Of a stretch of 64,000 nt of DNA, positions 1,971-59,296 are shown piece after piece (positions within the stretch are counted from its first letter, which is position 1; every line of letters starts with the position of its first letter). The stretch is from contig JBBIVW010000005.1 in the NCBI GenBank assembly GCA_037439525.1, forward strand, positions 7,007 to 71,006. Direction: 5' to 3'. Under the pieces are notes generated by a model. That model was not told where the DNA came from. It made no database searches and saw only the letters and a list, made by a program, of their open reading frames with translations. The translations under genes were made by a program, and so were the position numbers. This DNA is from Anaerolineae bacterium. GTDB taxonomy: Bacteria > Chloroflexota > Anaerolineae > Anaerolineales > UBA4823.

Positions 1971-1999
1971 TTGACCTATGGGTATCATGCAGCTAAAAT
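1971..1999 (+). promoter_or_regulatory. Candidate promoter of the SHMT-GcvT fusion gene (TTGACC-N17-TAAAAT)
   Basis: TTGACC at 1971-1976, a 17-nt spacer and TAAAAT at 1994-1999. This would give a leader of about 110 nt before the ATG at 2118 (AGGAG at 2107-2111). Confidence 0.4.
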
Positions 2000-2117
2000 C
2001 AACATGGAATGAAGACAATCGACATGTTTTTCACACGCCCGCGGTGGTGGTTCAACGCGCCCCTCGCGGGTAATTTCACCTTTTTCACTCATCCATTTCG
2101 CAATTCAGGAGCCAAAC

Positions 2118-5100
2118 ATGACTGATTTCCTTTTCCGCGGCTCTCTAGCCGATTTAGATGCCACCTTAAACGAACTGATCCAAATAGAAGCAGAACGCCA
2201 AGTGCGCAAGTTGATTTTGATTCCCAGCGAGAGTCAAGCCCCGCTGGCGGTGCGTGAAGCCCTTTCTTGCGCGTTTCAAAACATCTATGCCGAAGGTTAT
2301 CCGGATGAGGACACCCGATGGATGACCGAAGAGGATTTGGTAGATTACAAAAACCGACTGGCGCATTTCCGTCGCTATTCCGATCCACGTTACTATAAAG
2401 GCGTAGAGTATGCGGATATCGCCGAAGCGCTGGCGCGGCGCCGTTGTGCGGAAACCTTTGCCGCTAATGGCATTTCTGCTGACGATATCTATGTGAATGT
2501 ACAGGCGCTTTCCGGAGCGCCGGCAAACAATGCCGTGTATCACGCTCTGGTAGAGCCAGGGGGAACAATCATGGGGATGAATTTATTGCATGGCGGGCAT
2601 CTCACCCACGGCTCTTCGGTGAACCGCTCGGGCAAGTTCTATCGGGCGATCCATTATTCGGTTGATCCACAAACGGAACGCATCGACTACGACCAGGTTG
2701 AAGAATTGGCGCGCACCCACAAACCAAAGTTCATTATTGCCGGTTACTCATCTTATCCCTGGGCAGTAGATTGGGAGCGCTTCCGCCGAATTGCAGATAC
2801 GGTGGGAGCGTTTTTGTTTGCCGATATTGCCCATGTCGCGGGTTTGGTGGCGGCTGGCGTGTACCCCTCCCCCCTGGGATATGCCCATGTGATCACTTTC
2901 ACTACACACAAGTCTTTGTGCGGTCCGCGTGGGGCGTGCATCCTGACTACGGACGCTTCTTTGGCGCGCAAGATCGATCGCGCCGTCTTTCCGGGCGAGC
3001 AAGGTGGTCCCCATGTCAACACGTTTGTTGCCATGGCGCTGGCGTTCAAACTCGCGCAAACAGAACAATTCAAAACCCTGCAAAAGCAGGTGGTGCAAAA
3101 CTGCAAAGTGTTCACCCAAAAGTTGAAAGATTTGGGCTTCCGCATCCCCTATGGCGGCACGGATACACACATGATGAACCTGGATTGCAGCACCATTGTC
3201 GGTGAGGCAGGCGTAACGCTTTCCGGCGATCAGGCGGCACGTATCCTGGATATAGCCGGCATTGTGGTCAATCGCAATACCATCCCCGGTGACCTCTCGG
3301 CGGCTGACCCTTCTGGAATACGCATGGGCACCCATTGGGTAACGCAGCGCGGATTCAAAGAACAGCAAATGGAAGATTTGGCACATCTCATTGGAGATCT
3401 GCTGCACGCGATTACACCCTATGCTGTGGAGACACGTAAAGGATGGGCGCGCCGGGCAAAGGTGGATTTCACAGTGCTGGAAGAAACCAAGATGCGCGTG
3501 CGTGAAATGGCGCTCTCTGCCGGCATGGATTTCCAACCGAACCAACATGGATATCCTCACTTTTATTATCTGGACGACCCTCATCAGGGCGAGTGGGCAT
3601 CATTGGAGATCGGTGGGGAGCGGGTGCGGGCTTTCTTGAACTTTGCCCTCTCCAGCGATGTGGACGCGCTCAAACCCGGTGAAAGTCAAGTCACCAGTGC
3701 CTTTACTCCTCATGGTCACATCCTTGGGAGGTTGTATTGCTTGCAGGAAGATTGTTTTCGCCTGGTAATAGCTGCCCATCAAGCCAGCCTACTGGCTGCC
3801 TGGTTGCGGGATCTTTCCGATGGTTATGTTTCCTTTGATGAGCAGGTGGAGAGGAAACTGCCGGGACCTGTGTGGGTCGCCGAAGGTCAAATGCGCGAAA
3901 AGCCCTTGCTAACTGGCGAGGCAGTGTGTGGCGATAAGCCGTACTTCATCGGGCAAAAGCTGGAAAAAAGTGGCGCCCCATTGGCGGATTTCACCTGGCA
4001 GGCGCTTGAGGCGCCTCTACGCCGCACGCCGATTTTCGAAACCCATAAGCGGCTAGGCGCAAAGCTCATCCCCTTTGCCGGCTGGGAGATGCCGGTATGG
4101 TACACTTCTGTTTTGGAGGAACATTTGGCGGTGCGTCACGCAGCAGGCTTGTTCGATGTGGCGCATATGGGCGTCTATCAGGCGGAAGGACCACATGCTG
4201 CCATCTTTTTGGACAGCGTCGCTGGCAATGATATCAGCGGATTGGAAGTGGGCGAGTCCTGTTATACGCATTTCTTGACCCCGGACGCAGAGGTGATTGA
4301 CGACTTGTTGGTTTATCGTCGTGGGCGCGAAAAATTCCTCATCGTAGTCAATGCTGCAAACGACGATAAAGATTGGGCTTGGTTGAATGCGGTCAAAGCT
4401 GGGGAAGTGCGTGTCAGCCGCCGACTTCCATGGGGGCGCGCTTTTGGCCGGGGTGTCGTACTGCGCAATTTAAGGCACCCCGAGGCGGGAGCGGATATGC
4501 GCGTTGACCTGGCGCTTCAAGGTCCCCGTTCTCGCGAGGTGCTCCTGGCTTTGGAGATGGACGAAGCCACACGCAAGCGCATCCTGGCATTGAAGCGCAC
4601 GCAACTTTGCGAAGCGCAGATTGGAGGCTTCGATTTGGTCATCTCGCGCACCGGATATACCGGCGAAAAGATGGCTTTCGAGTTGTTCGTCCACCCGGAG
4701 ATGGCAGAGCGGTTGTTCAATCGCCTGTTAGAAGTCGGGGAACCTTATGGGTTAAAGCCTATTGGGCTGGGGGCGCGAGACTCTTTGCGCACGGAGGCCG
4801 GTTTGCCCCTCTATGGACATGAGATGGGAGAGGGTTCGGGGCGGATGGGCGTAGCATCTTTAGGGGTCGGGGAAGCCGGGTTTGCTTCCTATGTAAAGGC
4901 CTACAAGCCCTGGTTCATTGGGCGTCAGGCGTTTATCGAACGTGAGAAGAGTCGTGATGGGGAGGTGGTACGCTTTCGCTTTCCGGAGAAGGGTGTGCGC
5001 ATGGCGCATCAGGGCGATGCAGTCCTTGACCGCCGTGGGCGCGTCATCGGTTGGGTGACCAGTTGTGCCGTAGATGCAGATGGCATGCTTACAGGCCAGG

Positions 5101-5255
5101 CATTTGTCGAGAAAAAGGCGTCAACCCCAGGTAGTGCCTTATACATCTATCCAGGAAGTGGAACCCAACTGCCCAAACCCTTTGAGAAACTGGAGCTTGG
5201 AGAACGAACGGCATTGCCCTCGTACGCCGTTGTCCTCGATCGCTTTCCACGATGA
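2118..5255 (+). CDS. Fusion protein: serine hydroxymethyltransferase-like domain + linker domain + glycine cleavage T protein (aminomethyltransferase)
   Basis: Residues ~1-470 carry SHMT signatures: LIPSESQAP, YAEGYP, VNVQALSGAPAN, GGHLTHG, and the PLP-lysine motif TFTTHKSLCGPRGA. Residues ~635-1045 (nt ~4020-5255) read as a full GcvT: THKRLGAKLIPFAGWEMPVWYTSVLEEHLAVRHAAGLFDVAHMG...GARDSLRTEAGLPLYGHE. It is one uninterrupted 1045-codon frame. Confidence 0.9.
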   Translation: MTDFLFRGSLADLDATLNELIQIEAERQVRKLILIPSESQAPLAVREALSCAFQNIYAEGYPDEDTRWMTEEDLVDYKNRLAHFRRYSDPRYYKGVEYADIAEALARRRCAETFAANGISADDIYVNVQALSGAPANNAVYHALVEPGGTIMGMNLLHGGHLTHGSSVNRSGKFYRAIHYSVDPQTERIDYDQVEELARTHKPKFIIAGYSSYPWAVDWERFRRIADTVGAFLFADIAHVAGLVAAGVYPSPLGYAHVITFTTHKSLCGPRGACILTTDASLARKIDRAVFPGEQGGPHVNTFVAMALAFKLAQTEQFKTLQKQVVQNCKVFTQKLKDLGFRIPYGGTDTHMMNLDCSTIVGEAGVTLSGDQAARILDIAGIVVNRNTIPGDLSAADPSGIRMGTHWVTQRGFKEQQMEDLAHLIGDLLHAITPYAVETRKGWARRAKVDFTVLEETKMRVREMALSAGMDFQPNQHGYPHFYYLDDPHQGEWASLEIGGERVRAFLNFALSSDVDALKPGESQVTSAFTPHGHILGRLYCLQEDCFRLVIAAHQASLLAAWLRDLSDGYVSFDEQVERKLPGPVWVAEGQMREKPLLTGEAVCGDKPYFIGQKLEKSGAPLADFTWQALEAPLRRTPIFETHKRLGAKLIPFAGWEMPVWYTSVLEEHLAVRHAAGLFDVAHMGVYQAEGPHAAIFLDSVAGNDISGLEVGESCYTHFLTPDAEVIDDLLVYRRGREKFLIVVNAANDDKDWAWLNAVKAGEVRVSRRLPWGRAFGRGVVLRNLRHPEAGADMRVDLALQGPRSREVLLALEMDEATRKRILALKRTQLCEAQIGGFDLVISRTGYTGEKMAFELFVHPEMAERLFNRLLEVGEPYGLKPIGLGARDSLRTEAGLPLYGHEMGEGSGRMGVASLGVGEAGFASYVKAYKPWFIGRQAFIEREKSRDGEVVRFRFPEKGVRMAHQGDAVLDRRGRVIGWVTSCAVDADGMLTGQAFVEKKASTPGSALYIYPGSGTQLPKPFEKLELGERTALPSYAVVLDRFPR

Positions 5256-5317: not shown

Positions 5318-6550
5318 ATGCAAACCTTATGGGATCATCGTTTCGCACGAAGAACGCAGAGAATGGGCAGCTCTGCAATTCGTGAATTGCTGAAGCTGAC
5401 CGAACTACCGGACATCATTTCCTTTGCCGGAGGCATGCCAGCGCCAGAAGTCTTTCCCACTCAGGCGGTTCAGGAAGCTTGCGCGCGCGTGCTTAAAGAT
5501 GCGGGTCCTCAGGCTTTGCAATATAGCTCTACAGAAGGATATCGACCTCTAAGGGAGCTCATAGTGCGGCACACTGCACGGTATGGCATCAAAGTGACGC
5601 CAGATAACATACTCATTACCTCTGGCTCCCAACAGGCTCTGGATTTATTGGGGAAAATCCTCATCAATCGAGGCGATCACATTTTGGTCGAATCGCCCAC
5701 ATACCTGGGCGCGTTACAAGCCTGGAGCGCGTATGGAGCGGAATATGTGACCGTTCCAATGGATGAATATGGCATGGTCACCGACGCCCTCGAAGAAGCT
5801 TTGCGCAGCGGTCCGAAATTCATTTATGTTCTGCCAAATTTCCAAAACCCAACTGGGGTTACTTTATCCTTGGAGAGGCGGAAGAGGCTGATCGAGTTAG
5901 CCGACCATTACGGAGTGCCCATTGTTGAAGATGACCCTTATGGGCAGTTGCGCTATGAAGGAGAGCACCTCCCCTCGGTGGTTATGCTGGACGACCAGTA
6001 CCGCGGCAACAACCAGGCTGGATACCATGGCAATGTGATTTACCTGAGCACGTTCTCAAAAATCCTTGCGCCAGGGATTCGCCTGGCGTGGGTGATAGCC
6101 CCAGAGGTCGTCATCCGTAAGTTGGTCTTGGCGAAACAAGGCGCGGATCTACATACAGCCACTTTCAATCAGATGGTTGCTTACGAGGTCTCGCGCGGTG
6201 GGTTTTTAGATGAGCATATTCAGCTGATTCGAAACGTATATCGCGAACGCCGCGATGTCATGTTGGCCGCCATGGATACGTATTTCCCGCCCGAGGTAGA
6301 ATGGACCCATCCGGAAGGTGGGTTGTTCTTATGGGGTACCCTTCCTGAGCACTTGGATTCGGCAGAGGTTTTGCAAGACGCCATCGCCAAAAAGGTCGCT
6401 TTTGTACCCGGGAAACCGTTTTTCCCCAAAGAAGGTGGCCACAACACCATGCGCATCAATTTCTCCAACGCGACGCCGGAAAAGATTCGTGAAGGCATCG
6501 CCCGCCTTGGGGAAGTGATTCGCGAAAAGCTGCGCCAGACAGTGCCATGA
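5318..6550 (+). CDS. PLP-dependent aminotransferase, class I/II (2-aminoadipate/aromatic aminotransferase-like, COG1167 type)
   Basis: SSAIRELLKL...ISFAGGMPAPEVFP, NPTGVTLSLERR and YLSTFSKILAPGIRLAW (PLP lysine in SKxL). I prefer the ATG at 5318 (GAGGAG 8 nt upstream) over the GTG at 5309 used by the track. Confidence 0.85.
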   Translation: MQTLWDHRFARRTQRMGSSAIRELLKLTELPDIISFAGGMPAPEVFPTQAVQEACARVLKDAGPQALQYSSTEGYRPLRELIVRHTARYGIKVTPDNILITSGSQQALDLLGKILINRGDHILVESPTYLGALQAWSAYGAEYVTVPMDEYGMVTDALEEALRSGPKFIYVLPNFQNPTGVTLSLERRKRLIELADHYGVPIVEDDPYGQLRYEGEHLPSVVMLDDQYRGNNQAGYHGNVIYLSTFSKILAPGIRLAWVIAPEVVIRKLVLAKQGADLHTATFNQMVAYEVSRGGFLDEHIQLIRNVYRERRDVMLAAMDTYFPPEVEWTHPEGGLFLWGTLPEHLDSAEVLQDAIAKKVAFVPGKPFFPKEGGHNTMRINFSNATPEKIREGIARLGEVIREKLRQTVP

Positions 6551-8365: not shown

Positions 8366-8905
8366 TCACTCAACAGGTAGAATCCAATAATATTCTCCGT
8401 CACCTTCGGCCATATATCCTTCGATCTCATCATCCTTATTGCTGCGGATCGTGCGGAACAACCAAATGATCATTTTCCCTTCCCAGCACCATGGACCTTT
8501 TTTGACTTCGAGCTGTTCTCCCAATTCAGGCATATATAAAGTGGGTGAGTACTGCACGTCTTTGTCGATGTGCATGCCGGTGTTGCCGGAGAGAGAGACG
8601 ACGTAGGCAATGTCCCCAATATGCAGACGAGAGGCGACGCATCCAGGGATAGGATAGTAGATATCTCCTGGAATGGTGGGTGGGGAGGTGCGTGTGGGGG
8701 TGGGGATGAATTGAGTAGGTGGGGGTAAAGGTTCCGTGGGCAAGGGTGTGGCGACGATCAGGGTAACGATTTGGGTGACAAAGATCGTTTTTTGCACTTC
8801 TTCAGTATCTGTTCCCTCCGAAGAGGCAGCAGTACAGGCATTGGTAAATAGCAGGATACTTGCCAGCAGAATGGCTATCCAACGGTTTTTGCATTTCAGC
8901 ACCAT
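8366..8905 (-). CDS. Secreted/anchored protein: signal anchor + Pro/Thr linker + SH3b-like C-terminal domain (paralog B)
   Basis: I prefer the ATG at 8905 (AAGGAG 8 nt upstream), giving MVLKCKNRWIAILLASILLFTNAC..., over the track start at 9037. The C-terminal ~100 aa read IYYPIPGCVASRLHIGDIAYV...GPWCWEGKMIIWLF...EGDGEYYWILP. Length is 179 aa, the same as the upstream paralog. Confidence 0.6.
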   Translation of the reverse strand: MVLKCKNRWIAILLASILLFTNACTAASSEGTDTEEVQKTIFVTQIVTLIVATPLPTEPLPPPTQFIPTPTRTSPPTIPGDIYYPIPGCVASRLHIGDIAYVVSLSGNTGMHIDKDVQYSPTLYMPELGEQLEVKKGPWCWEGKMIIWLFRTIRSNKDDEIEGYMAEGDGEYYWILPVE

Positions 8906-8937
8906 AAGGCGTTCTCCTTTTGAAATTTTAGGCAGCG

Positions 8938-9477
8938 CTATTGTCGTGGCAATGGCACCAGCCAGTATTCTTCGCCATTGCCTTCTGGAGTGAAGCCGCG
9001 CGTTCCATCGGCCATTTGTACGAACCATACGATCCAACCATGGCTACACCAGGGTCCATCCAGGATGGTCAGGATGCTGCCAGGTTGGGCATAGGTCAGG
9101 ATGTTGTCTTCATGTAAATCCAGTCCCCAACGAATGGCGTTTGGACCACCAATCCATGAGACCATGGCTTGATCGCCAATGTGTAAGCGCGAGGCGACGC
9201 AATTGGGTAGTGGGTAGTATATAGGCGCTGACATCGGATCCCAGGTTGGCGTTGGCGAAGGGAAGGGTGTTGGGCTGGGTAGGGGAGTGTTGGTTGGTCG
9301 TGGAGTGGGGGTAATGATTTGGGTTACCACCTGGGTGATCACTTCTGTCTCCACTATGGGAGTAGCGGTGTCTTGTAGGACGATCTTGGGCGGCTCGATG
9401 CGACAGGCCAGCACGGCAAGCCACAGCATCGCCCCGGCGACAATGAGATGGGTTTTTCTTCGAATGGTCATTTTCAT
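8938..9477 (-). CDS. Secreted/anchored protein: signal anchor + Pro/Thr linker + SH3b-like C-terminal domain (paralog A)
   Basis: The true start is probably the ATG at 9477 (AGGAG 10 nt upstream), giving MKMTIRRKTHLIVAGAMLWLAVLAC.... A PT-rich linker (TPTPRPTNTPLPSPTPFPSPTPT) is followed by IYYPLPNCVASRLHIGDQAMV...GPWCSHGWIVWFV...EGNGEEYWLVP. The 380-aa track ORF (to 10080) overlaps the transpeptidase gene out of frame, so I trimmed it. Confidence 0.6.
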   Translation of the reverse strand: MKMTIRRKTHLIVAGAMLWLAVLACRIEPPKIVLQDTATPIVETEVITQVVTQIITPTPRPTNTPLPSPTPFPSPTPTWDPMSAPIYYPLPNCVASRLHIGDQAMVSWIGGPNAIRWGLDLHEDNILTYAQPGSILTILDGPWCSHGWIVWFVQMADGTRGFTPEGNGEEYWLVPLPRQ

Positions 9478-9517
9478 ACCAATTGAACTCCTACTTGCGT
9501 ACTCAGATGCGCGGGGA

Positions 9518-10522
9518 CTAATATACGATGACCCGCGTTCCCTCATCGGAGGCGACGAAGTCCTCATCGACCGGCACATAGGGATCGGTCCAGCGGTAAA
9601 TCCACTTCGCCGCTTCCGGAGAAAGGTTGATGCATCCATGGCTTTGAGGGGTGCCATAGTTATTATGCCAATATGTCCCATGCAATGATACCCCGGTCCA
9701 GGCAATATAACAAACCCAGGGCACGCCCGGCAAGTCGAACTCATTTCCCTCCAGGTCCGATGCCATATGGCGGGTAGGCTGTTTACGTTCGACGCGGTAT
9801 TCCCCCTGTGGGGTATCTCCGGGGAAGTAGCCGGTGGCGGTGCGCGCAGTAAAGACCGGTTGGGAGCCCTCGAAGGCGATGATGCGTTGGCGATTAAGAT
9901 CGACTTCGATCCGTTTGCCCGGCACGCCTGGAGAAATGGGAGATAGCTCTTCAGCGGTAATCGGTCGGAAATGTTCGCCTTTGGCGAAATAGTGTACCCC
10001 TGCGCGGTCGTCGTACACCTGATACCACACGTCACCATTATCGAGCTTGAAGGCATAATGCACCCAATGGGTGCTGGCATAATACAGCCGATGCTTACGT
10101 TGCCAGATGCCCTCTTTGGGCAGGTACACTTGCGTAAAGGGAACAGTAACCTCCATCAATAACCCACCATTTGGGATGGAAAGCAACGGTTCGTTGATTT
10201 GGTTGCGTACGGGTTGCACGTATGCCGAATGAAGCCAGCCATCCTTGGTGCGTAGCCAAATAGGGTTATGCACCGGTTCCGGGTCGCCGAGCGCTTGCTC
10301 CAGAATCTGGATCACCGTATCGGTGACATAGAAGCCCAGCTCCTGACCCTGGGTGGAGGGTCTGTCATAGTAGCGTAGTGAATAAATGGTACGTCCGAGG
10401 GTGAAGGGAGGAGCCCCTTTATTGTAGGGGTCGTTTCCAGGAGGAAAATCTCGAAATGCAAGGCTGGCCACACTGACCGCGGATAATTTGAGAAAATCTC
10501 TCCTGCTGAGCCTGGTAGTCAT
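9518..10522 (-). CDS. L,D-transpeptidase (YkuD domain) with twin-arginine signal peptide
   Basis: Tat motif MTTRLSRRDFLKLSAVSVASLAF. The C-terminal YkuD catalytic signature is GVSLHGTYWHNNYGTPQSHGCINLSPEAAKWIY (His...Gly-Cys). Confidence 0.9.
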   Translation of the reverse strand: MTTRLSRRDFLKLSAVSVASLAFRDFPPGNDPYNKGAPPFTLGRTIYSLRYYDRPSTQGQELGFYVTDTVIQILEQALGDPEPVHNPIWLRTKDGWLHSAYVQPVRNQINEPLLSIPNGGLLMEVTVPFTQVYLPKEGIWQRKHRLYYASTHWVHYAFKLDNGDVWYQVYDDRAGVHYFAKGEHFRPITAEELSPISPGVPGKRIEVDLNRQRIIAFEGSQPVFTARTATGYFPGDTPQGEYRVERKQPTRHMASDLEGNEFDLPGVPWVCYIAWTGVSLHGTYWHNNYGTPQSHGCINLSPEAAKWIYRWTDPYVPVDEDFVASDEGTRVIVY

Positions 10523-12856: not shown

Positions 12857-14143
12857 ATGGTGAACCAATTGACCTTGAAGCAAATTTTAGCCGAACCCCA
12901 AACACTGGAAGACCTTCACATTCCCTCCAGCCTGGTGATCGATTTGATCTTTCGCTTGCTCTACAACGAAGGAAACGTCGCCCTATCGCGCTTCACCGAA
13001 GTGTTGAAGATTTCTAAGACGATCATTGATGACATCCTGCTTTGGATGCAAAAAGAACACCTCGTTGAAGTCTCCAAAGCCAGTGTGGAATTAGGGCGAT
13101 TGAGCAATGTCTATGCGTTGACCGATGCAGGGAAGAACCGCGCCCGGGACGCCATGGAACGCAGCGAGTATGTTGGACCGGTGCCGGTGTCTGTGCCTCA
13201 CTACAATCGGGGTATCGAACTGCAGAGCACTCGCGAAATGAACATCACTCCAAACACTGTGAAGGAGTCGCTCTCCGGATTGATCTTGCCTGAGGACTTC
13301 CATCGCCAGATTGGACCGGCTATTCGAGGTGGAAAATCGCTGTTCATTTATGGTCCCCCAGGGAATGGCAAGACCACTATTGCTTTGCGCATCGGCAAGT
13401 TGGTTGCAGGTGCGGATCCGATCTTCATTCCATACGCCATCACGGCCGGTGGACAGATCATTCAAATCTTCGATCGGCTCGTGCATCACCCCGTCCCCAA
13501 TCAAAATCCGCGCCATCCTGAGTATGGCCGTATCGATCAACGCTGGGTGCTGATCCAGCGACCCGCAGTCGCGGCAGGTGGCGAGCTGAAGCTGGATGCG
13601 CTTGAATTGCGCTATGATCCGATTGCCAAATTTTATGAAGCCTCGCTACAGATGAAAGCCAATGGAGGCATGTTCCTGCTGGATGACTTTGGTCGGCAAC
13701 AGGTGAGCCCTACGGATTTGCTGAACCGCTGGATTGTCCCCCTTGAACTGGATATTGACTATTTACGCCTGCAAAATGGACAAACGGTGGTTGTGCCGTT
13801 TCGAGAATTGATCGTGTTTAGCACCAACCTCGACCCCAGAAACCTGGTGGACGATGCTTTCTTGCGCCGTATTCAGATGAAAGTAGGCGTTGTCTCTCCA
13901 GATGAAAAGCTGTTTTACCAGATCTTTGTGATGGAAACGAAGTTGCAGTCTGTGCCGTTCGACAAAGATTCATTTTTACACTTGATCCATCATTGGTACC
14001 GCCAGCCGGGGCGCACCTTTCAGGCAGTGCACCCTCGCGATATCATCCGTATCATTCGCGCCTTGTGCGAGTACGATGGCATCCCGCCGCAAATGAATCC
14101 GCAATTGATTGACACTGCATGTCGCAGTTATTTTGTGGATTAG
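12857..14143 (+). CDS. AAA+ ATPase with N-terminal winged-helix-like domain (function unknown)
   Basis: Walker A LFIYGPPGNGKTTIA, Walker B GMFLLDDFGRQQ, sensor/Arg-finger region VFSTNLDPRNLVDDAFLRRIQMKV. The N-terminal ~100 aa (NVALSRFTEVLKISKTIIDDILLWMQKEHLVEV) look like a wHTH domain. Confidence 0.7.
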   Translation: MVNQLTLKQILAEPQTLEDLHIPSSLVIDLIFRLLYNEGNVALSRFTEVLKISKTIIDDILLWMQKEHLVEVSKASVELGRLSNVYALTDAGKNRARDAMERSEYVGPVPVSVPHYNRGIELQSTREMNITPNTVKESLSGLILPEDFHRQIGPAIRGGKSLFIYGPPGNGKTTIALRIGKLVAGADPIFIPYAITAGGQIIQIFDRLVHHPVPNQNPRHPEYGRIDQRWVLIQRPAVAAGGELKLDALELRYDPIAKFYEASLQMKANGGMFLLDDFGRQQVSPTDLLNRWIVPLELDIDYLRLQNGQTVVVPFRELIVFSTNLDPRNLVDDAFLRRIQMKVGVVSPDEKLFYQIFVMETKLQSVPFDKDSFLHLIHHWYRQPGRTFQAVHPRDIIRIIRALCEYDGIPPQMNPQLIDTACRSYFVD

Positions 14144-15326: not shown

Positions 15327-17765
15327 ATGCCAACCATCAAGACCATCTATTCTCTGGCGCGCCGCTCAGGGACTTCTTTTTTACTCCATATTTTGCTCAA
15401 TACCTGGCGAACCAATTACTTGAACCGCAAGTATTTCCACAAAAGGAAAGGAGCACAGAACCTCTTTGAGCATGTTCCGCAGCGCCTGAGCGAGGTTGAA
15501 GAACAGGTTTCAGGCGCGCGCTTTAATTTTTCTACCGCTGAGCTGACCGTGCGATTTCTCAGCGAAGACGTGCTCCATCTTTTGTGGGCACCGGGCAAGG
15601 TGCTGCCTCCGTATGCCATAGCCCAATCGCATTGGCTGCCAGTGGATGTGGAGCTAAAGCGCGAGGGTGACATATGGAAGTTGAGCAGCCGGGAGGTGAC
15701 CCTGGAGGTGCACGCGCATGGTGAACTGCGTTTTTGCCAGCCGAATGGTGCGTTATTACGCCGGGAGGTGCCTCCGCGGTACGGTGGTTTGGCATCCAAT
15801 CCGGGATGGTCCACCTGTGCCCTCTTACAGCCAGATGAAGGTATTTTCGGATTGGGGGAACAAACCGAGGGGCTCAATCTCAGAGGCAGCCGTCACGTGA
15901 TTTGGAATAAAGACCCCGCCGGCAGCTATGCGCCGGGCAAAGATCCCATTTACATGCCCTTGCCGGTATATCTGAGCCTATCCTCTGCTGGAGGATATTA
16001 CATTTTTTATCACAATTCACATCCGGCCCAAATTGATATTGACCCGGTTGTAGAAGGGGAGACAAACACCCCGTCATCCATCCGCGTCAATTTTGAGGGA
16101 GGTGCCTTAGATTATTACTTTATTCTGGGAGACCCCAGGCATGGCTTGAAGAAGTTTAGTGAGTTGACAGGCAAGCCATGTCTTCCGCCACTTTGGAGCC
16201 TGGGCTACCATCAATCGCGCTGGGGCTACTGTTCACAGGAGGATATCCTGGAAGTTTTGGAAGGATTTCTCCGACAAGATATGCCGCTCAGCGCCATCCA
16301 TTTGGACATTGATTATATGCGAGGCTACCGCGTATTCACGGTGGACAAAACGCGCTTTTCGGATTTGAAATCTCTGGCGCAAAGGCTGGCAGCCGTGGGT
16401 GTGAAATTGGTGTGCATCCTAGACCCAGGGGTGAAGCGCGATGCGCATTATGCGGTGTACCAAGAAGGAAAGCACATGAGGGCTTTTTGCACTTTGAGCA
16501 ACGGGCAGGAGTTTGCCGGGGTAGTTTGGCCGGGAACAAGCGCATTCCCCGATTTCACGAATGAGGAGGTGCGGCAATGGTGGGGTTCCCATTACCCGGC
16601 ATTGGTAGAACAGGGTGTGGCTGGTTTTTGGCATGATATGAACGAACCCACTTCGTTTAGCTTATTGGGGCAAAACACCTTACCCTTCGAGGTTCAGCAT
16701 CACATGGAAGGGCAGAAAAGCGACCACCGAGAAGCGCACAACCTGTACGCGTTGATGATGAACCGGGCGGGTTTCGAAGCTTTGCAAGCTTGTGCTCCTC
16801 AACGGCGCCCATGGATCCTTTCGCGCTCTGGATGGGTATCCCAGCAACGGTATGCCTGGAAATGGACCGGTGACTGTGAGAGTTCATGGAAGAGTCTGCG
16901 CGCCACATTACCCAATATTATGGGCATGGGCTTGAGTGGCATCCCCTTCAATGGAGTGGACATCGGCGGTTTTAGCGGGGACCCCTCGCCAGAGCTATAT
17001 CTGCGCTGGTTCCAAATGGCTACCTTCCTGCCTTTGTTTCGCACACATTCTGCCATCGGCACAAAGCGGCGCGAGCCATGGGTTTTTGGAGAACCATACA
17101 CCTCCGTCATTCGCCGTTACTTGAAGTTTCGCTATGCCCTGATGCCGTATCTGTACACCCTGGCTTGGGAATGCTGCCAGACGGGATGGCCGATGGTGCG
17201 ACCTATGTTTTGGGAACATCCCGAACAGATGGAGTACTGGTACATCGAAGACCAGTTTTTCTTGGGTGATGCGTTGTTGGTCGCACCGATTCTCGCTCAA
17301 GGAGAGGTAGGGCGTTTTGTCAGCCTGCCTGAGGGTCGTTGGTGCGACTTGTGGAAGCCCCAGATATATCCCGGTCCTGCCAGGGTAGAGGTGCGCAGTG
17401 GCTTGGAGGATATCCCTGTATTCGTGCGCGCGGGCTGTGTGCTCCCGCTGCAACATGGCGAACGCTTGACCCTGCGCGTATTCCCTCCGGAGGAAGACCA
17501 AATCCATTTGAGCCAGTTATATCTGGATGATGGCGACGGGTATGAGGGTTTTCACCTCTCTCAATTTGAGATCAGACGTGATGAACAGGGCGTCCGGGTT
17601 CACTGGCAGTCCCAAGGGACTTTGCCTTTCCCTTATCCCCTGGTAGAATTTGACCTGCGTGCCTTATCCCCAACAGGGGTGATCCTTCAAGGGCAGCGCA
17701 TTCCGTTAGAAAATGGTTGTATCACTGTAGCACCATTTGACGAGTTATGGATCAAGGAAGGCTGA
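15327..17765 (+). CDS. Glycoside hydrolase family 31 alpha-glucosidase
   Basis: GH31 nucleophile motif GFWHDMNEP, plus IHLDIDYM and KWTGDCESSW...GVDIGGF. Start is the ATG at 15327, 6 nt after AAGGAGG. Confidence 0.9.
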   Translation: MPTIKTIYSLARRSGTSFLLHILLNTWRTNYLNRKYFHKRKGAQNLFEHVPQRLSEVEEQVSGARFNFSTAELTVRFLSEDVLHLLWAPGKVLPPYAIAQSHWLPVDVELKREGDIWKLSSREVTLEVHAHGELRFCQPNGALLRREVPPRYGGLASNPGWSTCALLQPDEGIFGLGEQTEGLNLRGSRHVIWNKDPAGSYAPGKDPIYMPLPVYLSLSSAGGYYIFYHNSHPAQIDIDPVVEGETNTPSSIRVNFEGGALDYYFILGDPRHGLKKFSELTGKPCLPPLWSLGYHQSRWGYCSQEDILEVLEGFLRQDMPLSAIHLDIDYMRGYRVFTVDKTRFSDLKSLAQRLAAVGVKLVCILDPGVKRDAHYAVYQEGKHMRAFCTLSNGQEFAGVVWPGTSAFPDFTNEEVRQWWGSHYPALVEQGVAGFWHDMNEPTSFSLLGQNTLPFEVQHHMEGQKSDHREAHNLYALMMNRAGFEALQACAPQRRPWILSRSGWVSQQRYAWKWTGDCESSWKSLRATLPNIMGMGLSGIPFNGVDIGGFSGDPSPELYLRWFQMATFLPLFRTHSAIGTKRREPWVFGEPYTSVIRRYLKFRYALMPYLYTLAWECCQTGWPMVRPMFWEHPEQMEYWYIEDQFFLGDALLVAPILAQGEVGRFVSLPEGRWCDLWKPQIYPGPARVEVRSGLEDIPVFVRAGCVLPLQHGERLTLRVFPPEEDQIHLSQLYLDDGDGYEGFHLSQFEIRRDEQGVRVHWQSQGTLPFPYPLVEFDLRALSPTGVILQGQRIPLENGCITVAPFDELWIKEG

Positions 17766-17766
17766 C

Positions 17767-19440
17767 ATGGATTTCAATCACTATTTCACCAACGAGGAAG
17801 TTGAGACCATTCTCAAAGAATGGAAGGAGCGTTACGCCGATCTGATCGAAGTGTCTGTGTTGGGCGAGTCGTATGAAAAACGCCCGATTTGGTTGCTCAC
17901 GCTCACGAACCGAGCAACAGGCGATGACCTTTCCAAACCGGCGGTGTGGATGGATGCGAACATTCACGCCGTCGAGTTGAGCGGCACGACAACCATCCTG
18001 CATATCGCCCATACCTTGCTCGAGGGGCATGGGAAGGACGAGCGCGTCACGCGCCTGCTGGACGAATGTACGTATTACCTGGTGCCGCGCGTAAACCCCG
18101 ATGGCGCTGCCTGGGCAATGGCAAAGGTGCCACGCTATATCCGTTCTGGGGTTCGACCTTACCCGTGGGATGATAAAGATGAAGGACTTCATCGACAGGA
18201 CGTTGATGGGGATGGCCGCATTTTGCAAATGCGCCTGGAGGACCCGCATGGGGATTGGAAGATCAGCGAGCTAGACCCGCGTTTGATGCAAAAACGTGAG
18301 CCTCACGAACATGGCGGCAAGTATTACCGCCTCTTCCCGGAAGGTTTATTAGAGGATTACGATGGTTACTTGATCAAGATGGCGCGCCCTCAACAGGGTT
18401 TGGACTTCAACCGCAACTTTCCCTTCGAGTGGCGCACGGAAGAGGAACAGTCCGGCGCCGGTCCATATCCCACCTCTGAGCCCGAAACGCGCGCCATGAT
18501 CGACTTTATCGTGCGGCATGCGAATATTAACCTGGCGATTGCTTACCACACCTTCAGCCGCGTCATCCTGCGTCCGTACAGCACCAAACCCGATGATGCC
18601 ATGGAGACAGAAGACCTATGGGTGTTGCAGAAGATTGGCGAAATCGGCAATAAAATCACCGCATATCCGTGTGTCTCCACTTTTCATGATTTCAAATACC
18701 ACCCCAAGGAAATCACCAGCGGAGCGTTTGACGATTGGATGTTCGATCACCTGGGGGTGTATGCCTATACCATTGAGCTGTGGGATCTGCCCAATGAGGC
18801 AGGCATCAAAGATCGTAAATTTATTGAGTGGTATCGCCAGCATCCACATGAAGAAGATCTTCAAATCTTGAAATGGATCGAAGAACATGGCGAACCTGAT
18901 GCCTATGTGGACTGGTATCCTTTTGACCACCCACAATTGGGACGCGTTGAACTGGGTGGTTGGAACTTGCTGTACTCCTGGTGGAATCCTCCAAAGAGCT
19001 ATATTGGCGCAGAGGCAGGGCGCAATTCACCATTTGCTTTAGCGTTGGGTGATTTGTTGCCTCATCTGCGCGTGCATACTTTGCAAGTATCCCAGATCGG
19101 CGAGGAAGATTTTCATATCAACCTGGTGGTGGAAAACACTGGCTTTCTACCCACATATACCAGCCAACAAGGGAAGAAACGCAAAGCCATGCGACCTGTA
19201 CGCGTCGAATTAGAGGCACCTTCGGGATGTGCGCTGATCAATGGCAAACGCCGCGTGGAATTAGGCCATCTGGAAGGGCGCAGCAATAAATTGTCCGTTA
19301 CCAGCTTATGGGAAGCCTCCCCAACCGATAACCGCGCGCGCACGGAGTGGGTTGTGCATGCTCCGGTTGGGACGCAAGTCCAAATCCATGTGCTCAGTGA
19401 CCGCGCGGGCTGCGTACATCGCACGGTAGAACTACGCTGA
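17767..19440 (+). CDS. M14-family zinc carboxypeptidase
   Basis: MDFNHYFTNEEVETILKEWKERYADLIEVSVLGESYEKRPIWLLTLTN, and the zinc motif NIHAVELSG (HxxE). The ATG at 17767 lies 1 nt after the GH31 stop. Confidence 0.85.
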   Translation: MDFNHYFTNEEVETILKEWKERYADLIEVSVLGESYEKRPIWLLTLTNRATGDDLSKPAVWMDANIHAVELSGTTTILHIAHTLLEGHGKDERVTRLLDECTYYLVPRVNPDGAAWAMAKVPRYIRSGVRPYPWDDKDEGLHRQDVDGDGRILQMRLEDPHGDWKISELDPRLMQKREPHEHGGKYYRLFPEGLLEDYDGYLIKMARPQQGLDFNRNFPFEWRTEEEQSGAGPYPTSEPETRAMIDFIVRHANINLAIAYHTFSRVILRPYSTKPDDAMETEDLWVLQKIGEIGNKITAYPCVSTFHDFKYHPKEITSGAFDDWMFDHLGVYAYTIELWDLPNEAGIKDRKFIEWYRQHPHEEDLQILKWIEEHGEPDAYVDWYPFDHPQLGRVELGGWNLLYSWWNPPKSYIGAEAGRNSPFALALGDLLPHLRVHTLQVSQIGEEDFHINLVVENTGFLPTYTSQQGKKRKAMRPVRVELEAPSGCALINGKRRVELGHLEGRSNKLSVTSLWEASPTDNRARTEWVVHAPVGTQVQIHVLSDRAGCVHRTVELR

Positions 19441-20644: not shown

Positions 20645-20732
20645 GTCATCCCTTTGTAGTTCCTCATTCCTGCAGATTTATGCTAAAATCCGCAAGAATT
20701 GCCGGCAACAGCTACTTTGGGAAAATGAGAAG

Positions 20733-22019
20733 ATGACGAAACAAGAGATAAAATCCGTCAAAGGCACGCGCGATTACTACCCTCGCGAAATGAGCCTGCG
20801 CAATTTTCTTTATGATAAGGCGCGCCAGGTGTCCGAATCCTTTGGCTATCAGGAGTATGATGGGCCATTCTTAGAAACATTGGAACTGTACGCGGCGAAA
20901 TCTGGAGAAGAGCTGGTCAAGGAGCAATCCTTTGTCTTTCCTGATCGTGGAGGCGAGTTGATCACCTTGCGGCCTGAGCTCACTCCTACTCTGGCGCGCA
21001 TGGTTGCCCAACGCCAAAGGCAATTGGTCTTCCCTTTACGTTGGTGGTCTTGGGGGCCCTTCTGGCGGTATGAGCGACCACAAAAAGGACGCACGCGAGA
21101 GTTTTTTCAATGGAACATCGATTTGATCGGTGTGGATACCCCACAAGCTGATGCGGAAATGGTGGCGATTGCCGCCTCGTTCCTTGAAGCATGTGGCTTG
21201 ACCTCTCAGGAAGTGCACCTGTTGGTGAACAACCGGCAATTGATGGAGGGAGAGATTCTCGCCCTGGGCATACCTATGGAGAAGCGGCTGGAGGTGTTTC
21301 ACCTCATCGATCGAAAAGACAAGCTTTCGCCCGAAGATTGGCGCGCATACGCCCTTGAAATCGGATTGACCTCCTCTCAATATGAAGGGTTATTGAATGT
21401 CCTTCAGGATGAAGGATTATGGCAAAAATCGGAGCGGATGCAGCGCTTCTTTGAGTGTGTACATATGCTGGGTATGGGTGAATTTGTGCGCTTTTCTCCG
21501 CATGTCATTCGCGGTTTAGATTACTATACCAGCACTGTGTTTGAAGCCTGGGATGTCAAGCGGGAGTTTCGCGCCATCCTGGGAGGTGGGCGGTATGACA
21601 ACCTGGTGGCGGATGTGGGCGGGACGCCTGTGCCGGCGGTTGGATTTGCCATGGGGGATCTGGTGATCAGCCTGGTGTTGGAGGCTTATGGGCATTTACC
21701 TTCACATCTGGACACTTCTCCAGCCCCCATTTTAGTCACCGTGTTCAGTGAGGAAACGATGGGTGAGTCGTTTCGCCTGGCAGGCGATTTGCGCCGCCAG
21801 GGCTTCAAAGTGGCTTGTTACCCAGAAGCGACCAAGTTGCCTCGGCAGATCAAATACGCCGATCGCATGGGGATGCGCCTGGTGATATTACTTGGCCCTG
21901 ATGAAATCTCCGAGGGGGTAGTTTCAATTAAAGATTTGGCTCGTATGGAACAGGTACGCGTTACCCGCTCCCAGGTTGGACAAACCTTGTCGGATTTGCT
22001 TGAAAGAGGCTCAGCTTAG
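20733..22019 (+). CDS. hisS: Histidine--tRNA ligase
   Basis: KGTRDYYPREM, ELTPTLARM, WGPFWRYERPQKGRTREFFQWNIDLIG, GGGRYDNL, and a C-terminal anticodon-binding domain. Confidence 0.92.
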   Translation: MTKQEIKSVKGTRDYYPREMSLRNFLYDKARQVSESFGYQEYDGPFLETLELYAAKSGEELVKEQSFVFPDRGGELITLRPELTPTLARMVAQRQRQLVFPLRWWSWGPFWRYERPQKGRTREFFQWNIDLIGVDTPQADAEMVAIAASFLEACGLTSQEVHLLVNNRQLMEGEILALGIPMEKRLEVFHLIDRKDKLSPEDWRAYALEIGLTSSQYEGLLNVLQDEGLWQKSERMQRFFECVHMLGMGEFVRFSPHVIRGLDYYTSTVFEAWDVKREFRAILGGGRYDNLVADVGGTPVPAVGFAMGDLVISLVLEAYGHLPSHLDTSPAPILVTVFSEETMGESFRLAGDLRRQGFKVACYPEATKLPRQIKYADRMGMRLVILLGPDEISEGVVSIKDLARMEQVRVTRSQVGQTLSDLLERGSA

Positions 22020-22039: not shown

Positions 22040-22113
22040 GGTGGGCGTAGCTCAACTGGCAGAGCACCTGACTGTGGATCAGGCGGTTGAGGGTTCGAGC
22101 CCCTTCGCCCACC
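22040..22113 (+). tRNA. tRNA-His (anticodon GUG) with genome-encoded G-1
   Basis: Folded by hand. G-1 at 22040 sits opposite discriminator C (22113). Acceptor GTGGGCG/CGCCCAC, D stem GCTC/GAGC, anticodon stem CCTGA/TCAGG with loop CT-GTG-GA, T arm GAGGG-TTCGAGC-CCCTT. Confidence 0.9.
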
Positions 22114-22122
22114 CTATAAGAA

Positions 22123-22146: not shown

Positions 22147-22196
22147 ATTTAGCAGTGACAGAGCTCGATGCGCTCGTATGGAACCACTGCTGAGCC

Positions 22197-23183
22197 TTAT
22201 GAGCTCCTTTTTCCCCTGGAGAACAACAGGCGTTCGATGTTGGCAACGCCTTCCTCAAATGTATCTCCCAAATATTCCCCTGCAATGCGCATCCGCCATT
22301 CCGGATATTCCACGAAAAACCTGCCACCATAGCCGACGACCGGCGTGGCCTCAGTCGCCAGGTTTGGGAAGTAAGCGGGTAAATCGAGCAAAGCCTGGGC
22401 GGTTTCTTCTGACATGGCAACGAGGACGACCAAATCGGGCTCTAAATCACGCACCAGACTGGCTAAATCTGCCATAGGGACTGTTTGCCCGAGATAAGCA
22501 ATAGGCCAACGCCGCCGGCGCAACAAGGCCCCTAGCACCAGCAGACTGCCTTCATGCAGCTCTTGTGGAGCGCATGCCAACATGATAGGAGGGGTCAATC
22601 TGGGTGGTGGCCCACTCACCATCCACATCAATAACCTTTGGCGTAGGAAATTGGTTGCCAGGTGTTCTGTGGCGATATCGATTTCCCCGTTTTCCCAGGC
22701 GCTACCGATCCTATCGAGCACAGGGGCGATCACCTGCAGGATGGTCTCTTCTGGGGAAGCGACAGCAAGGGCATTAGCCAGCACTTGCGCGGCTTCCTCT
22801 TCGAGGTGTGCTACGAGAGCTTCGTAAAGCTGGTCCGCAAACATTGCCAGGTTAGGCCGGGGCTCAGCAGTTGAGACCCGATGCAGGAGAGGCGCAGGTT
22901 CTGGTTGGCTGACATGCCCAAGTTGCGTTTGATGGTAGAGCGCTTGAATGGCTTGGGAGGTTTGCATCCCCTCCTGGATGCGCGCCTTGACCCATTGCAA
23001 CTGCAAGATGTCTTGTTCAGAGTAAAGACGATGACCCCCCTCGGTGCGCTTGGATTGAGGAAAGCCATAGCGGCGCTCCCAAGCACGTAATGTTGCCATG
23101 GAGAGGCCCGTCAGGCGGGAAACCGCTCCAATGTTAAACAAAGGCTTGTCTCCACCAACCAGCACATGCGGTAATGTCGCCAT
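22197..23183 (-). CDS. MerR-family regulator with cobalamin-binding domain (CarH/LitR-type light-responsive repressor)
   Basis: N-terminal MerR HTH FNIGAVSRLTGLSMATLRAWERRYGFPQSKRTEGGHRLYSEQD. The central helical bundle has W-x9-E-H (WENGEIDIATEH). The Rossmann-like B12 domain has ACAPQELHEGSLLVLG, a near match to D/E-x-H-x-x-G. AAGGAG sits 5 nt before the ATG. Confidence 0.8.
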   Translation of the reverse strand: MATLPHVLVGGDKPLFNIGAVSRLTGLSMATLRAWERRYGFPQSKRTEGGHRLYSEQDILQLQWVKARIQEGMQTSQAIQALYHQTQLGHVSQPEPAPLLHRVSTAEPRPNLAMFADQLYEALVAHLEEEAAQVLANALAVASPEETILQVIAPVLDRIGSAWENGEIDIATEHLATNFLRQRLLMWMVSGPPPRLTPPIMLACAPQELHEGSLLVLGALLRRRRWPIAYLGQTVPMADLASLVRDLEPDLVVLVAMSEETAQALLDLPAYFPNLATEATPVVGYGGRFFVEYPEWRMRIAGEYLGDTFEEGVANIERLLFSRGKRSS

Positions 23184-25415: not shown

Positions 25416-26549
25416 ATGCTAACCGTTGAAAAAGTTGACACCCACCTGAAAGCACAGGTGAAACGTTTTGTTCATCTCCCTTTCCAGTTCTATCAATCCA
25501 CGCCTCAATGGGTGCCGCCCATCTTGATGGACGTCGAAACCATGCTCAATCGTGAGAAGCATCCTTTCTTCGAACATTCGGATGGCGATTTCTTCATTGC
25601 CGTGCGGGATGGCAAAGACGTGGGGAGAATCGGAGTCTTTGAAAACAAGCGCTTCAATCAGTATCATGGAACAAAGTATGCGCACTTCTACTTATTTGAG
25701 TGTGAGAACAACCTGGAAACTGCCCAAGCATTGTTTGAACGCGCCTATGAATGGGCGCATCAGCGTGGCCTGGATACGATGCTGGGTCCAAAAGGAATGG
25801 GTCCCCTGGATGGTTATGGCATGCTCATCGAGGGCTTTGAGCACCGCCAGATGATGACCATGGTGAGTTATAACCATGCTTACCTGCCTTCCTTTATGGA
25901 GCAAATGGGCTTTCAAAAAGAAGTGGATTTTGTCTCTTGTTATCTGCCGCGGGAGAGTTTTCATCTGGATGAGCGCATCCACCGCATTGCCGAACGCGTT
26001 CAACAGCGAGGCACTTTGCAGGTGAAACGCTTCAAGAACAAACGTGAGCTGATCGACTGGTCGCCACGCATTGGCAAGGCTTACAACAACGCCTTTGTCA
26101 ACAATTGGGAGTATTACCCTTTGACCGAGCGAGAGGTCAAGTTCGTCGTGGATAACATCATGACCATAGCAGACCATCGATTGATCAAAATCATCACCCA
26201 TGGCGAAGATGTGGTTGGGTTCTTGTTAGGATTTCCAGATGTCTCGGCGGCGATCCAGCGGTGTAAAGGCAAAATCCTTCCGTTCGGTATCGTGGACATT
26301 CTCATGGAATTGCGCCGTACAGATTGGATCGCGTTGAATGGTGCCGGCATCCTGCCCGAGTTTCAGGGCCGGGGAGGGAACGCCTTGCTGTATTCCGAAA
26401 TGGAAAAGACTGTGCGCTCTCCGGATTTCAATTTCGCGCATGCGGAGATGACCCAGGTGGCAGAAACGGCGGTACAAATGCGCAAAGATTTGATCAACCT
26501 GGGCGGAAAACCGTATAAAAACCACCGCGTGTTCATCAAGAAGATTTGA
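25416..26549 (+). CDS. GNAT-family N-acetyltransferase-like protein
   Basis: The C-terminal half carries the acetyl-CoA motif A, ILPEFQGRGGNALLYSEM (Q/R-x-x-G-x-G/A). The N-terminal half has no motif I recognise. GGAGG RBS. Confidence 0.65.
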   Translation: MLTVEKVDTHLKAQVKRFVHLPFQFYQSTPQWVPPILMDVETMLNREKHPFFEHSDGDFFIAVRDGKDVGRIGVFENKRFNQYHGTKYAHFYLFECENNLETAQALFERAYEWAHQRGLDTMLGPKGMGPLDGYGMLIEGFEHRQMMTMVSYNHAYLPSFMEQMGFQKEVDFVSCYLPRESFHLDERIHRIAERVQQRGTLQVKRFKNKRELIDWSPRIGKAYNNAFVNNWEYYPLTEREVKFVVDNIMTIADHRLIKIITHGEDVVGFLLGFPDVSAAIQRCKGKILPFGIVDILMELRRTDWIALNGAGILPEFQGRGGNALLYSEMEKTVRSPDFNFAHAEMTQVAETAVQMRKDLINLGGKPYKNHRVFIKKI

Positions 26550-47945: not shown

Positions 47946-47975
47946 TTGAGATAGGGGATCAGAACGGGCTATAAT
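47946..47975 (+). promoter_or_regulatory. Candidate promoter of the giant surface-protein gene (TTGAGA-N18-TATAAT)
   Basis: TTGAGA at 47946-47951, an 18-nt spacer and TATAAT at 47970-47975, about 30 nt upstream of the ATG at 48007 (GAGGAGG RBS). Confidence 0.4.
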
Positions 47976-48006
47976 GGTATCGAAGGTCGCGGGCGAGGAG
48001 GTGAAC

Positions 48007-55465: not shown

Positions 55466-55501
55466 CGTTGATCTCTCAACCGGCAGTGGATACAGGGAGG
55501 C

Positions 55502-59254: not shown

Positions 59255-59296
59255 CCGTTAGCGCCTATCTGCGGGTGAAATGACCGGGCATGAAGT

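Follow-up and report, generated by a model that had tools for sequence, protein, structure and literature searches.

Serine hydroxymethyltransferase (SHMT) and the glycine cleavage system (GCS) are the two main entries of one-carbon (C1) units into folate metabolism. The glycine decarboxylase complex (GDC) and SHMT are coupled functionally both in plant mitochondria, where two glycines yield one serine during photorespiration, and in the reductive glycine pathway, and direct passage of 5,10-methylene-tetrahydrofolate (CH2-THF) between SHMT and the GCS has been debated for plant mitochondria. The gene described here lies in a 64,000-nucleotide (nt) stretch of contig JBBIVW010000005.1 from an Anaerolineae bacterium of the Chloroflexota (this whole stretch is called the window), and encodes predicted enzymes of the same reaction pair, which in the plant and reductive glycine systems is linked through CH2-THF (see also PMC7547702). 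In those systems the T protein (GcvT, the aminomethyltransferase of the GCS) and SHMT are separate proteins, whereas in the fusion described here they are covalently joined within one polypeptide of 1045 amino acids (aa).

The nearest precedent for passing a C1 unit to folate within one molecule comes from dimethylglycine oxidase and dehydrogenase (PDB 1PJ5 and 4PAB), the alpha subunit of heterotetrameric sarcosine oxidase (SoxA; PDB 2GAG) and trimethylamine N-oxide (TMAO) demethylase (PDB 9Q5A), each of which combines a C1-generating site and a tetrahydrofolate (THF) site of GcvT fold in one polypeptide. In these enzymes the partner domain frees an iminium or formaldehyde, and the GcvT-like domain is independent of the lipoyl-carrying H protein. 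The fusion differs from this type, as its partner domain, SHMT, is itself a THF enzyme and its GcvT module ranks by profile score with genuine T proteins. We found no description of the fusion, of the pseudo-domain between its two halves (GcvT′) or of its two conserved insertions in the literature searched, and a preprint on syntrophic acetate-oxidizing bacteria (SAOB) of the Anaerolineae handles GlyA and GcvT as ordinary separate functions. What appears to be new is the way the enzymes are combined, together with GcvT′ and the pair of insertions. Each half belongs to a textbook family with known chemistry.

Architecture of the fusion protein

The gene is a real fusion of SHMT to a complete GcvT, and the catalytic residues of both enzymes are retained. 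An initial annotation, made from the sequence alone, had proposed a single uninterrupted SHMT-GcvT frame, and this is borne out by the open reading frame (ORF), which has no internal stop and carries both modules above their family thresholds. The parts of the gene, with residues numbered on the 1045-aa protein, are as follows.

2118..5255, + strand: whole fusion gene, in the order SHMT, GcvT′ remnant, GcvT; ATG start, 1045 aa plus stop, no internal stop
2118..3410, + strand: SHMT catalytic module, residues 1-431, from Pfam and NCBIfam profiles, alignment to PDB 1DFO, family conservation and TM-score
2304..2387, + strand: 28-aa insertion specific to the family, residues 63-90, placed by the 1DFO alignment between the counterparts of E. 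coli G61 and R63
3411..3572, + strand: extension after SHMT, residues 432-485, with a beta-hairpin, a helix (451-467) and a conserved HGYPHF motif, from AlphaFold2 (AF2) secondary structure
3573..3887, + strand: GcvT′ pseudo-domain, residues 486-590, left over from a second folate-binding GCV_T domain, of which it represents the central sub-domain, with the equivalents of the catalytic aspartate and asparagine lost
3888..4001, + strand: variable linker, residues 591-628, with a conserved KPYFIG motif at 607-612
4002..5252, + strand: complete GcvT (aminomethyltransferase) module, residues 629-1045, from profiles, alignments and TM-score
4410..4505, + strand: ~30-aa GcvT insertion, residues ~765-796, a gap relative to PDB 1WOO, 1YX2 and 3A8I

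Profile searches assign the N-terminal part to SHMT and the C-terminal part to GcvT, in agreement with the segments proposed earlier. Pfam SHMT (PF00464) matches the protein at 422 bits (cut-off 27, E = 2.5e-126), and the NCBIfam SHMT subfamily model NF000586 is passed at 433.4 bits against a cut-off of 335. Pfam GCV_T (PF01571) scores 264 bits (cut-off 25.6, E = 1.2e-78), and the gcvT equivalog model TIGR00528 is passed at 258.4 bits against 235.85. The model for the fluorothreonine transaldolase type of SHMT fusion, TIGR04506, gave 85.4 bits against an equivalog cut-off of 650, and none of the equivalog cut-offs for GcvT-domain oxidases and demethylases was reached (TMAO demethylase 134.7 against 1100, SoxA 109.2 against 1164, DmdA 44.5 against 410, and LigM 34.8 against 580). 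In structure comparison, no solved structure spanned more than one module of the fusion.

The SHMT module shares its fold with canonical GlyA (E. coli, PDB 1DFO; PF00464, NF000586) at a target TM-score of about 0.8 and 40-43% identity, with values of 0.80-0.83 to the solved SHMTs. In the 1DFO alignment, the lysine that binds pyridoxal 5′-phosphate (PLP), K265 of the T-T-H-K motif, falls on E. coli K229, and its motif FTTHKSLCGPRG aligns with E. coli TTTHKTLAGPRG, so that the PLP-lysine motif noted in the initial annotation is indeed kept. Likewise, E59, Y93, H161, D236, H239 and R402 correspond to E. coli E57, Y65, H126, D200, H203 and R363, and the equivalents of Y55, E57, Y65, H126, D200, H203, R235, N347 and R363 are all present. 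The likeness to GlyA thus extends to the PLP-lysine, the HGGHLTHG motif, the aspartate/histidine pair, the carboxylate-binding arginine and the catalytic glutamate and tyrosine. These residues are also conserved across 69 divergent family members at 34-62% identity, over which all such counts are given here: the equivalents of E. coli Y55, E57, Y65, H126, D200, H203, T226, K229, R235, N347 and R363 are each kept in 91-99% of members, with the PLP-lysine found in 67, the E57 equivalent in 68 and the R363 equivalent in 67 of the 69.

The fusion is unlike GlyA in its 28-aa insertion, in its C-terminal hairpin-helix extension and in the GcvT′ and GcvT domains joined on behind, which bring it to 1045 aa compared with ~417 aa. 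It therefore departs from the canonical single-module SHMT architecture (~415-480 aa), since the insertion at residues 63-90 splits the 1DFO alignment and 580 additional residues follow at the C-terminus. The initial annotation had described an insertion after YAEGYP; this insertion is real, at 28 aa, but the RYYKG segment that had been included in it is the counterpart of the canonical RYYGG (E. coli residues 63-67). The insertion falls between the equivalents of the active-site residues E57 and Y65. In solved SHMTs, these two flanking residues are supplied by the partner subunit of the dimer. It measures 27-29 aa in 67 of the 69 divergent members, and exactly 28 in 63 of them, and within the close clade R67, L81, R85, R86 and D89 are invariant. 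The AF2 model of the monomer is of low confidence in this segment. In the extension that follows SHMT, the close clade holds Y479, P480 and H481 invariant.

At the other end of the protein, the last ~410 aa had been read as a full GcvT, and the alignments confirm this, with ~417 aa matching B. subtilis 1YX2 and T. maritima 1WOO end to end (residues 1-342 of 364 in 1WOO, and equally well in 1YX2). The three-domain T-protein fold is complete, including the C-terminal barrel, with a target TM-score of 0.84 to 1YX2. The module shares with stand-alone GcvT (1YX2, 1WOO, 3A8I; TIGR00528) the catalytic aspartate, the asparagine of the VNAAN motif and the GLGARDxLRxEA motif. Among the divergent members, the catalytic D729 is found in 69 of 69 and the conserved folate-site residues N745 in 66, E850 in 68 and R887 in 66; in human GcvT the catalytic residue is Asp101 (PMC9551070). 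The module is unlike stand-alone GcvT in its tethered N-terminus, in the motif GYTGEKMAFE, in lying outside a gcvH-gcvP operon and in its ~30-aa insertion, which measures 27-32 aa in all 69 members and contains the sequence L782-R783-N784-L785-R786, invariant in the close clade.

Between the two enzymes lies a module that the initial annotation could not match to any motif. This view does not hold, as the module matches the Pfam GCV_T profile over positions 49-131, at 27.9 bits against the cut-off of 25.6. It also aligns by blastp with the GcvT module of the same protein, over residues 69-143 of that module (E = 3e-6), and is confidently folded in the AF2 model, with a predicted local distance difference test (pLDDT) of ~90. 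When modelled alone and compared with Foldseek, it superposes on the central sub-domain of T proteins (PDB 3GIR, 1YX2, 1WOO and 3A8K) over ~100 aa at 2.0-2.6 Å (E ~2e-5). The equivalent of the catalytic aspartate is absent from all 38 close homologues (0/38) and present in only about one third of the wider family, while the asparagine equivalent is conserved nowhere in the family. This region also evolves faster than the catalytic modules, with 52% compared to 73-80% identity in the close clade. On this evidence, the middle module is what remains of a second folate-binding GcvT domain and is catalytically dead. Long-form members have a complete GCV_T domain in this place (E = 4.8e-36 and 1e-21, covering positions 1-243 of the 255 in the profile). 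The family architecture is therefore SHMT-GcvT′-GcvT, of which the window protein keeps a trimmed GcvT′. The family thereby illustrates how a GcvT domain can degenerate into what would be a structural spacer.

YgfZ and Iba57 (PDB 1VLY, 1NRK and 7Z3H) also match the middle module in fold; they are non-catalytic GcvT-fold proteins that offer a precedent for GcvT-fold domains without THF-dependent catalysis (PMC9551070). Unlike these, the middle module consists of the central sub-domain alone and is embedded in a fusion, and it lies closest to bona fide T proteins and to its own GcvT module rather than to YgfZ/Iba57. Many family members of 1150-1340 aa have a complete second GCV_T in the middle, as seen in the regions scanned (P0128, P0150, P0123 and P0125). 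Some of these long forms retain a "DD" catalytic motif there, and their middle domain could still be capable of folate binding, perhaps also of catalysis. The linker that follows is variable, with the stretch 586-606 measuring between 21 and 183 aa in different family members, and includes the nearly invariant K607 of the KPYFIG motif. This motif resembles K-x-W/F-F-I-G-R, found at the start of domain 3 of GcvT, and gives a weak self-match to YKPWFIGRQ.

Distribution of the fusion family

For a gene from a single metagenome-derived contig, there is the legitimate concern that a sequencing error or an overlooked stop has fused two neighbouring genes. Among 5.8 billion clustered proteins searched, at least 120 clusters of 1040-1082 aa match the window protein at 100% query coverage and 67-85% identity. 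Where named, these clusters carry only the label "serine hydroxymethyltransferase" or "GcvT", and come from metagenome-assembled genomes (MAGs) of Anaerolineales or Chloroflexota. An exhaustive HMMER scan of 1.84 billion representatives at 50% identity added ~70 further full-length representatives of 999-1339 aa, at 34-62% identity, with both halves covered. Full-length collinearity with at least 120 independent homologues at 67-85% identity excludes a frameshift or missed stop, and the same uninterrupted architecture recurs in the ~70 divergent representatives and in assemblies of cultured strains and a complete chromosome. The junction region, moreover, is itself a folded and conserved domain. 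The artefact explanation found no support in these comparative data and is refuted by them; we regard it as vanishingly improbable.

The survey for orthologous fusions that the initial annotation had recommended uncovers a large and conserved family. In a scan of one genome per GTDB species, made with the fusion-specific middle-module motif [WY]Lx[DA]LSDGY[VI] and confirmed by tblastn, at least 589 matches were recovered. The best 80 of these are all from Anaerolineae, and include the cultured Thermanaerothrix daxensis GNS-1, T. solaris and the complete MAG chromosome CP070639.1. One distant member at 38% identity (locus L090) has neighbours that cluster at 90% identity or more with proteins of Ktedonobacteraceae, and the family therefore spans at least two classes of Chloroflexota. 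Candidate "split" members, with short matches to SHMT only or to GcvT′-GcvT only, were rejected; they start inside SHMT or end abruptly, which marks them as fragments at contig edges.

Proposed function and alternatives

We propose, with moderate confidence, that the fusion is a housekeeping bifunctional enzyme, typical of Chloroflexota, which couples glycine cleavage to serine-glycine interconversion through CH2-THF. In relatives, a convergent gcvH-gcvPA-gcvPB cluster lies 2-8 kb downstream of the fusion in 12 of 56 loci, where this count, like the other synteny counts given here, comes from phylogenetically clustered loci that are not independent observations. No gcvT was found within 1.7-3.6 kb upstream of gcvH in four such loci (L023, L051, L056 and L074), and 1.56 Mb of related loci contained no second SHMT-like or GcvT-like sequence. 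The GCS needs a T protein to work. In relatives, the genes for H and P cluster without gcvT, and a T module above the equivalog threshold, with its catalytic residues kept, is encoded nearby. Most simply, then, the fused T module would serve these organisms as T protein and the fused SHMT as SHMT.

The N-terminal module would act as a PLP- and THF-dependent SHMT (serine + THF ↔ glycine + CH2-THF). The GcvT module would depend on partners encoded by genes of their own, namely lipoyl-H protein, P protein (GcvPA/PB) and L protein, catalyzing aminomethyl-H + THF ↔ CH2-THF + NH3 + dihydrolipoyl-H, and the dead GcvT′, the remnant of a duplicated domain, would serve as a structural spacer between the modules. 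The coupled reaction would be 2 glycine + NAD+ ↔ serine + CO2 + NH4+ + NADH, or its reverse, and with both CH2-THF sites on one polypeptide the labile CH2-THF could be used where it is made. The sequences show modules that are intact, conserved and co-inherited, and from these we infer both activities, dependence on H protein, folate channelling and the replacement of stand-alone glyA and gcvT. The initial annotation had suggested that such a fusion could channel glycine or THF between the two reactions; coupling through a shared folate is the best-supported reading of the data, while channelling itself is inferred.

Several observations weigh against this proposal. No gcvH or gcvP lies within the 64-kb window, and linkage to gcvP is seen in only 21% of the loci in relatives, mostly from related genomes and hence not independent. 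A stand-alone glyA or gcvT may be present elsewhere in the genome. The C-terminal part scores just below the cut-off of the GcvT subfamily model NF001567 (293.8 against 300), and its match to Pfam GCV_T_C (PF08669) is sub-threshold at 17.7 bits against 25.9. The conserved GYTGEDGFE motif is replaced by GYTGEKMAFE, and the N-terminus of GcvT is tethered by the fusion rather than free. In E. coli T protein, the N-terminal region matters for association with H protein.

A different role of the GcvT module is conceivable, by analogy with dimethylglycine oxidase, sarcosine oxidase or TMAO demethylase. It would be independent of H protein and act in cis as a folate-binding domain for SHMT, taking up, keeping or passing on a C1 unit (or THF itself), while the GCS uses another T protein. 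GcvT-like domains fused to other catalytic domains are found among the weaker matches to the module, and the blocked N-terminus, the ~30-aa family-specific insertion and the altered GYTGE(K-M-A)FE motif would all suit such a role, as would the lack of GCS genes near most of the distant members. Set against these are the gcvT equivalog cut-off, which the module passes while scoring far below those of TMAO demethylase, SoxA, DmdA and LigM, the full three-domain T-protein fold and the gcvH-gcvP clusters of relatives, which have no gcvT of their own. By established enzymology, moreover, SHMT binds THF itself and frees no C1 unit that would need trapping. We therefore consider an H-independent role unlikely.

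The fusion could also be a specialized paralogue, in which the insertion-bearing SHMT module, together with an aminotransferase, has a different beta-hydroxy or alpha-substituted amino acid as its substrate, while canonical glyA and gcvT elsewhere do the housekeeping. The insertion between two active-site residues (the E. coli E57 and Y65 equivalents) is compatible with this, and the gene is tightly, and probably operonically, linked to an aminotransferase of the MsAT/LysN/KAT-II group, which is found immediately 3′ of the fusion gene in 54 loci out of the 71, among 80 from Anaerolineae, whose downstream sequence is long enough. This linkage is missing in distant members, however, and no second SHMT or GcvT was found in the 1.56 Mb of related sequence. 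The substrate, PLP and folate residues of SHMT that we tested are 91-99% conserved, the SHMT subfamily threshold of NF000586 is passed, and the fluorothreonine transaldolase model scores 85 against its cut-off of 650. The suggestion in the initial annotation of a divergent SHMT-like enzyme with another substrate is disfavoured by this conservation and by the NF000586 score; the insertion close to the active site still lends it some weight, but a specialized paralogue seems to us improbable. The coupled housekeeping enzyme thus remains the reading that we prefer.

A bolder form of this preferred reading is conceivable, if rather doubtful. The fusion would have replaced stand-alone glyA and gcvT across much of the Chloroflexota as a self-contained machine for glycine-serine interconversion. 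A single, firmly bound (polyglutamyl-)THF would carry the C1 unit back and forth between the T and SHMT sites without equilibrating with free folate, and GcvT′ and the two insertions would form an interface or tunnel, or a platform on which H protein docks. If true, a natural covalent complex of SHMT and the GCS would be seen for the first time, and CH2-THF channelling between these enzymes would be directly evidenced. The question of how CH2-THF is handed over is relevant to engineering of the reductive glycine pathway, and a natural fusion in hundreds of species provides a defined protein for measuring coupling or channelling. A natural covalent link between SHMT and the GCS is thus notable and experimentally useful for specialists in one-carbon metabolism. 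There is also a practical consequence for annotation. Anaerolineae are abundant in digesters, sediments and wastewater, and where 1045-aa proteins are labelled only "SHMT" or "GcvT", metabolic reconstructions of these bacteria may miscount one function.

Genomic context and other genes of the window

The features around the fusion gene, and the run of large ORFs towards the end of the window, are as follows.

669-1505, - strand: divergent RpiR/SIS regulator gene, upstream of the fusion gene
1767-1843, + strand: tRNA-Val, anticodon TAC, in the AT-rich 612-nt intergenic region between the regulator and the fusion
1971..1999, + strand: promoter-like TTGACC-17-TAAAAT, 5′ of the fusion gene; weak evidence
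2107..2111, + strand: Shine-Dalgarno-like AGGAG, 6 nt 5′ of the ATG, read directly from the sequence
5318..6550, + strand: class-I aminotransferase (MsAT / PH0207 / LysN group), ATG at 5318 preceded by GAGGAG; the program-called ORF starts at GTG 5309
39804-43124 (+ strand), 47974-52902 (+ strand) and 52892-62275 (- strand): run of large ORFs

Upstream of the fusion, ~270 untranslated nt separate tRNA-Val from the ATG and have no Rfam match. A search for a riboswitch or leader RNA with Rfam, at the gathering threshold in the window and three loci and by a permissive scan of 1844-2160, gave tRNAs only. The number of promoter-like sites is not above that expected in shuffled sequence.

Downstream, a gap of 62 nt without a terminator-like site leads to the aminotransferase gene, which is probably co-transcribed with the fusion. 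The encoded enzyme is closest to the broad-specificity MsAT / PH0207 / LysN group (E ~1e-117 to 1e-113), and archaeal alanine:glyoxylate transaminase is more distantly related (E = 1e-72). The initial annotation had named an aminotransferase as the next gene and found no gcvH or gcvP nearby, and this description is valid for the whole 64 kb. In tblastn searches of the window with the SHMT, middle and GcvT modules and with GcvPA, GcvPB and GcvH of relatives, nothing was found besides the fusion itself, and an E. coli GcvH query gave no match in the window. An M14 carboxypeptidase gene at 17737-19440 (+ strand) is weakly related (33% identity over 119 aa) to the M14 gene that separates the fusion from the gcvP cluster in relatives. 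It may be a remnant of the ancestral neighbourhood, which this genome would have rearranged.

Distant members of the family lie in varied, unrelated housekeeping neighbourhoods without the aminotransferase, as would be expected of a core enzyme. In one of them (L088), a GDC-P gene at 22193-23144 (- strand) is located ~9 kb from the fusion, and in another (L091), a lipoyl synthase gene at 20657-21562 (- strand) is located 7.5 kb away; both are weak hints of a link to lipoyl and glycine-cleavage functions. In L090 (1-9933 of contig JBAIHC010000219.1), the fusion orthologue is directly downstream of three nonribosomal peptide synthetase (NRPS) genes with condensation, adenylation, peptidyl carrier protein (PCP) and thioesterase domains. 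This adjacency could be a coincidence, or could reflect a role in serine or glycine supply.

The remaining genes of the window that we examined are ordinary housekeeping genes, and a few further features were observed. Two minus-strand ORFs, 8366-9037 and 8938-~9500, share a cysteine-containing C-terminal domain (YYP[IL]P.CVASRLHIGD ... GPWC ... W), preceded in both by a hydrophobic N-terminus and a proline/threonine-rich linker. By sequence, they look like tandem paralogous proteins of a secreted or lipoprotein-like type; ORF 8366-9037 (- strand) has no Pfam match. The program-called 380-aa ORF 8938-10080 overlaps the YkuD gene (9518-10522), and because of this overlap its true start is probably internal. 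Further along, a regulator at 22197-23183 (- strand), with a MerR-type helix-turn-helix (HTH) and a B12-binding domain, adjoins tRNA-His (22041-22114) and the histidyl-tRNA synthetase gene (HisRS, 20733-22019), and has the architecture of CarH-type light- or B12-responsive regulators. Pfam gave no match at E ≤ 1e-5 for two sizeable plus-strand ORFs, 12857-14143 (428 aa) and 25416-26549 (377 aa). The second of these shows 26% full-length identity to the gene upstream of the fusion in locus L001, for which only faint acetyltransferase matches were obtained. The last third of the window is filled by very large ORFs of 1106, 1642, 857, 1250 and 992 aa.

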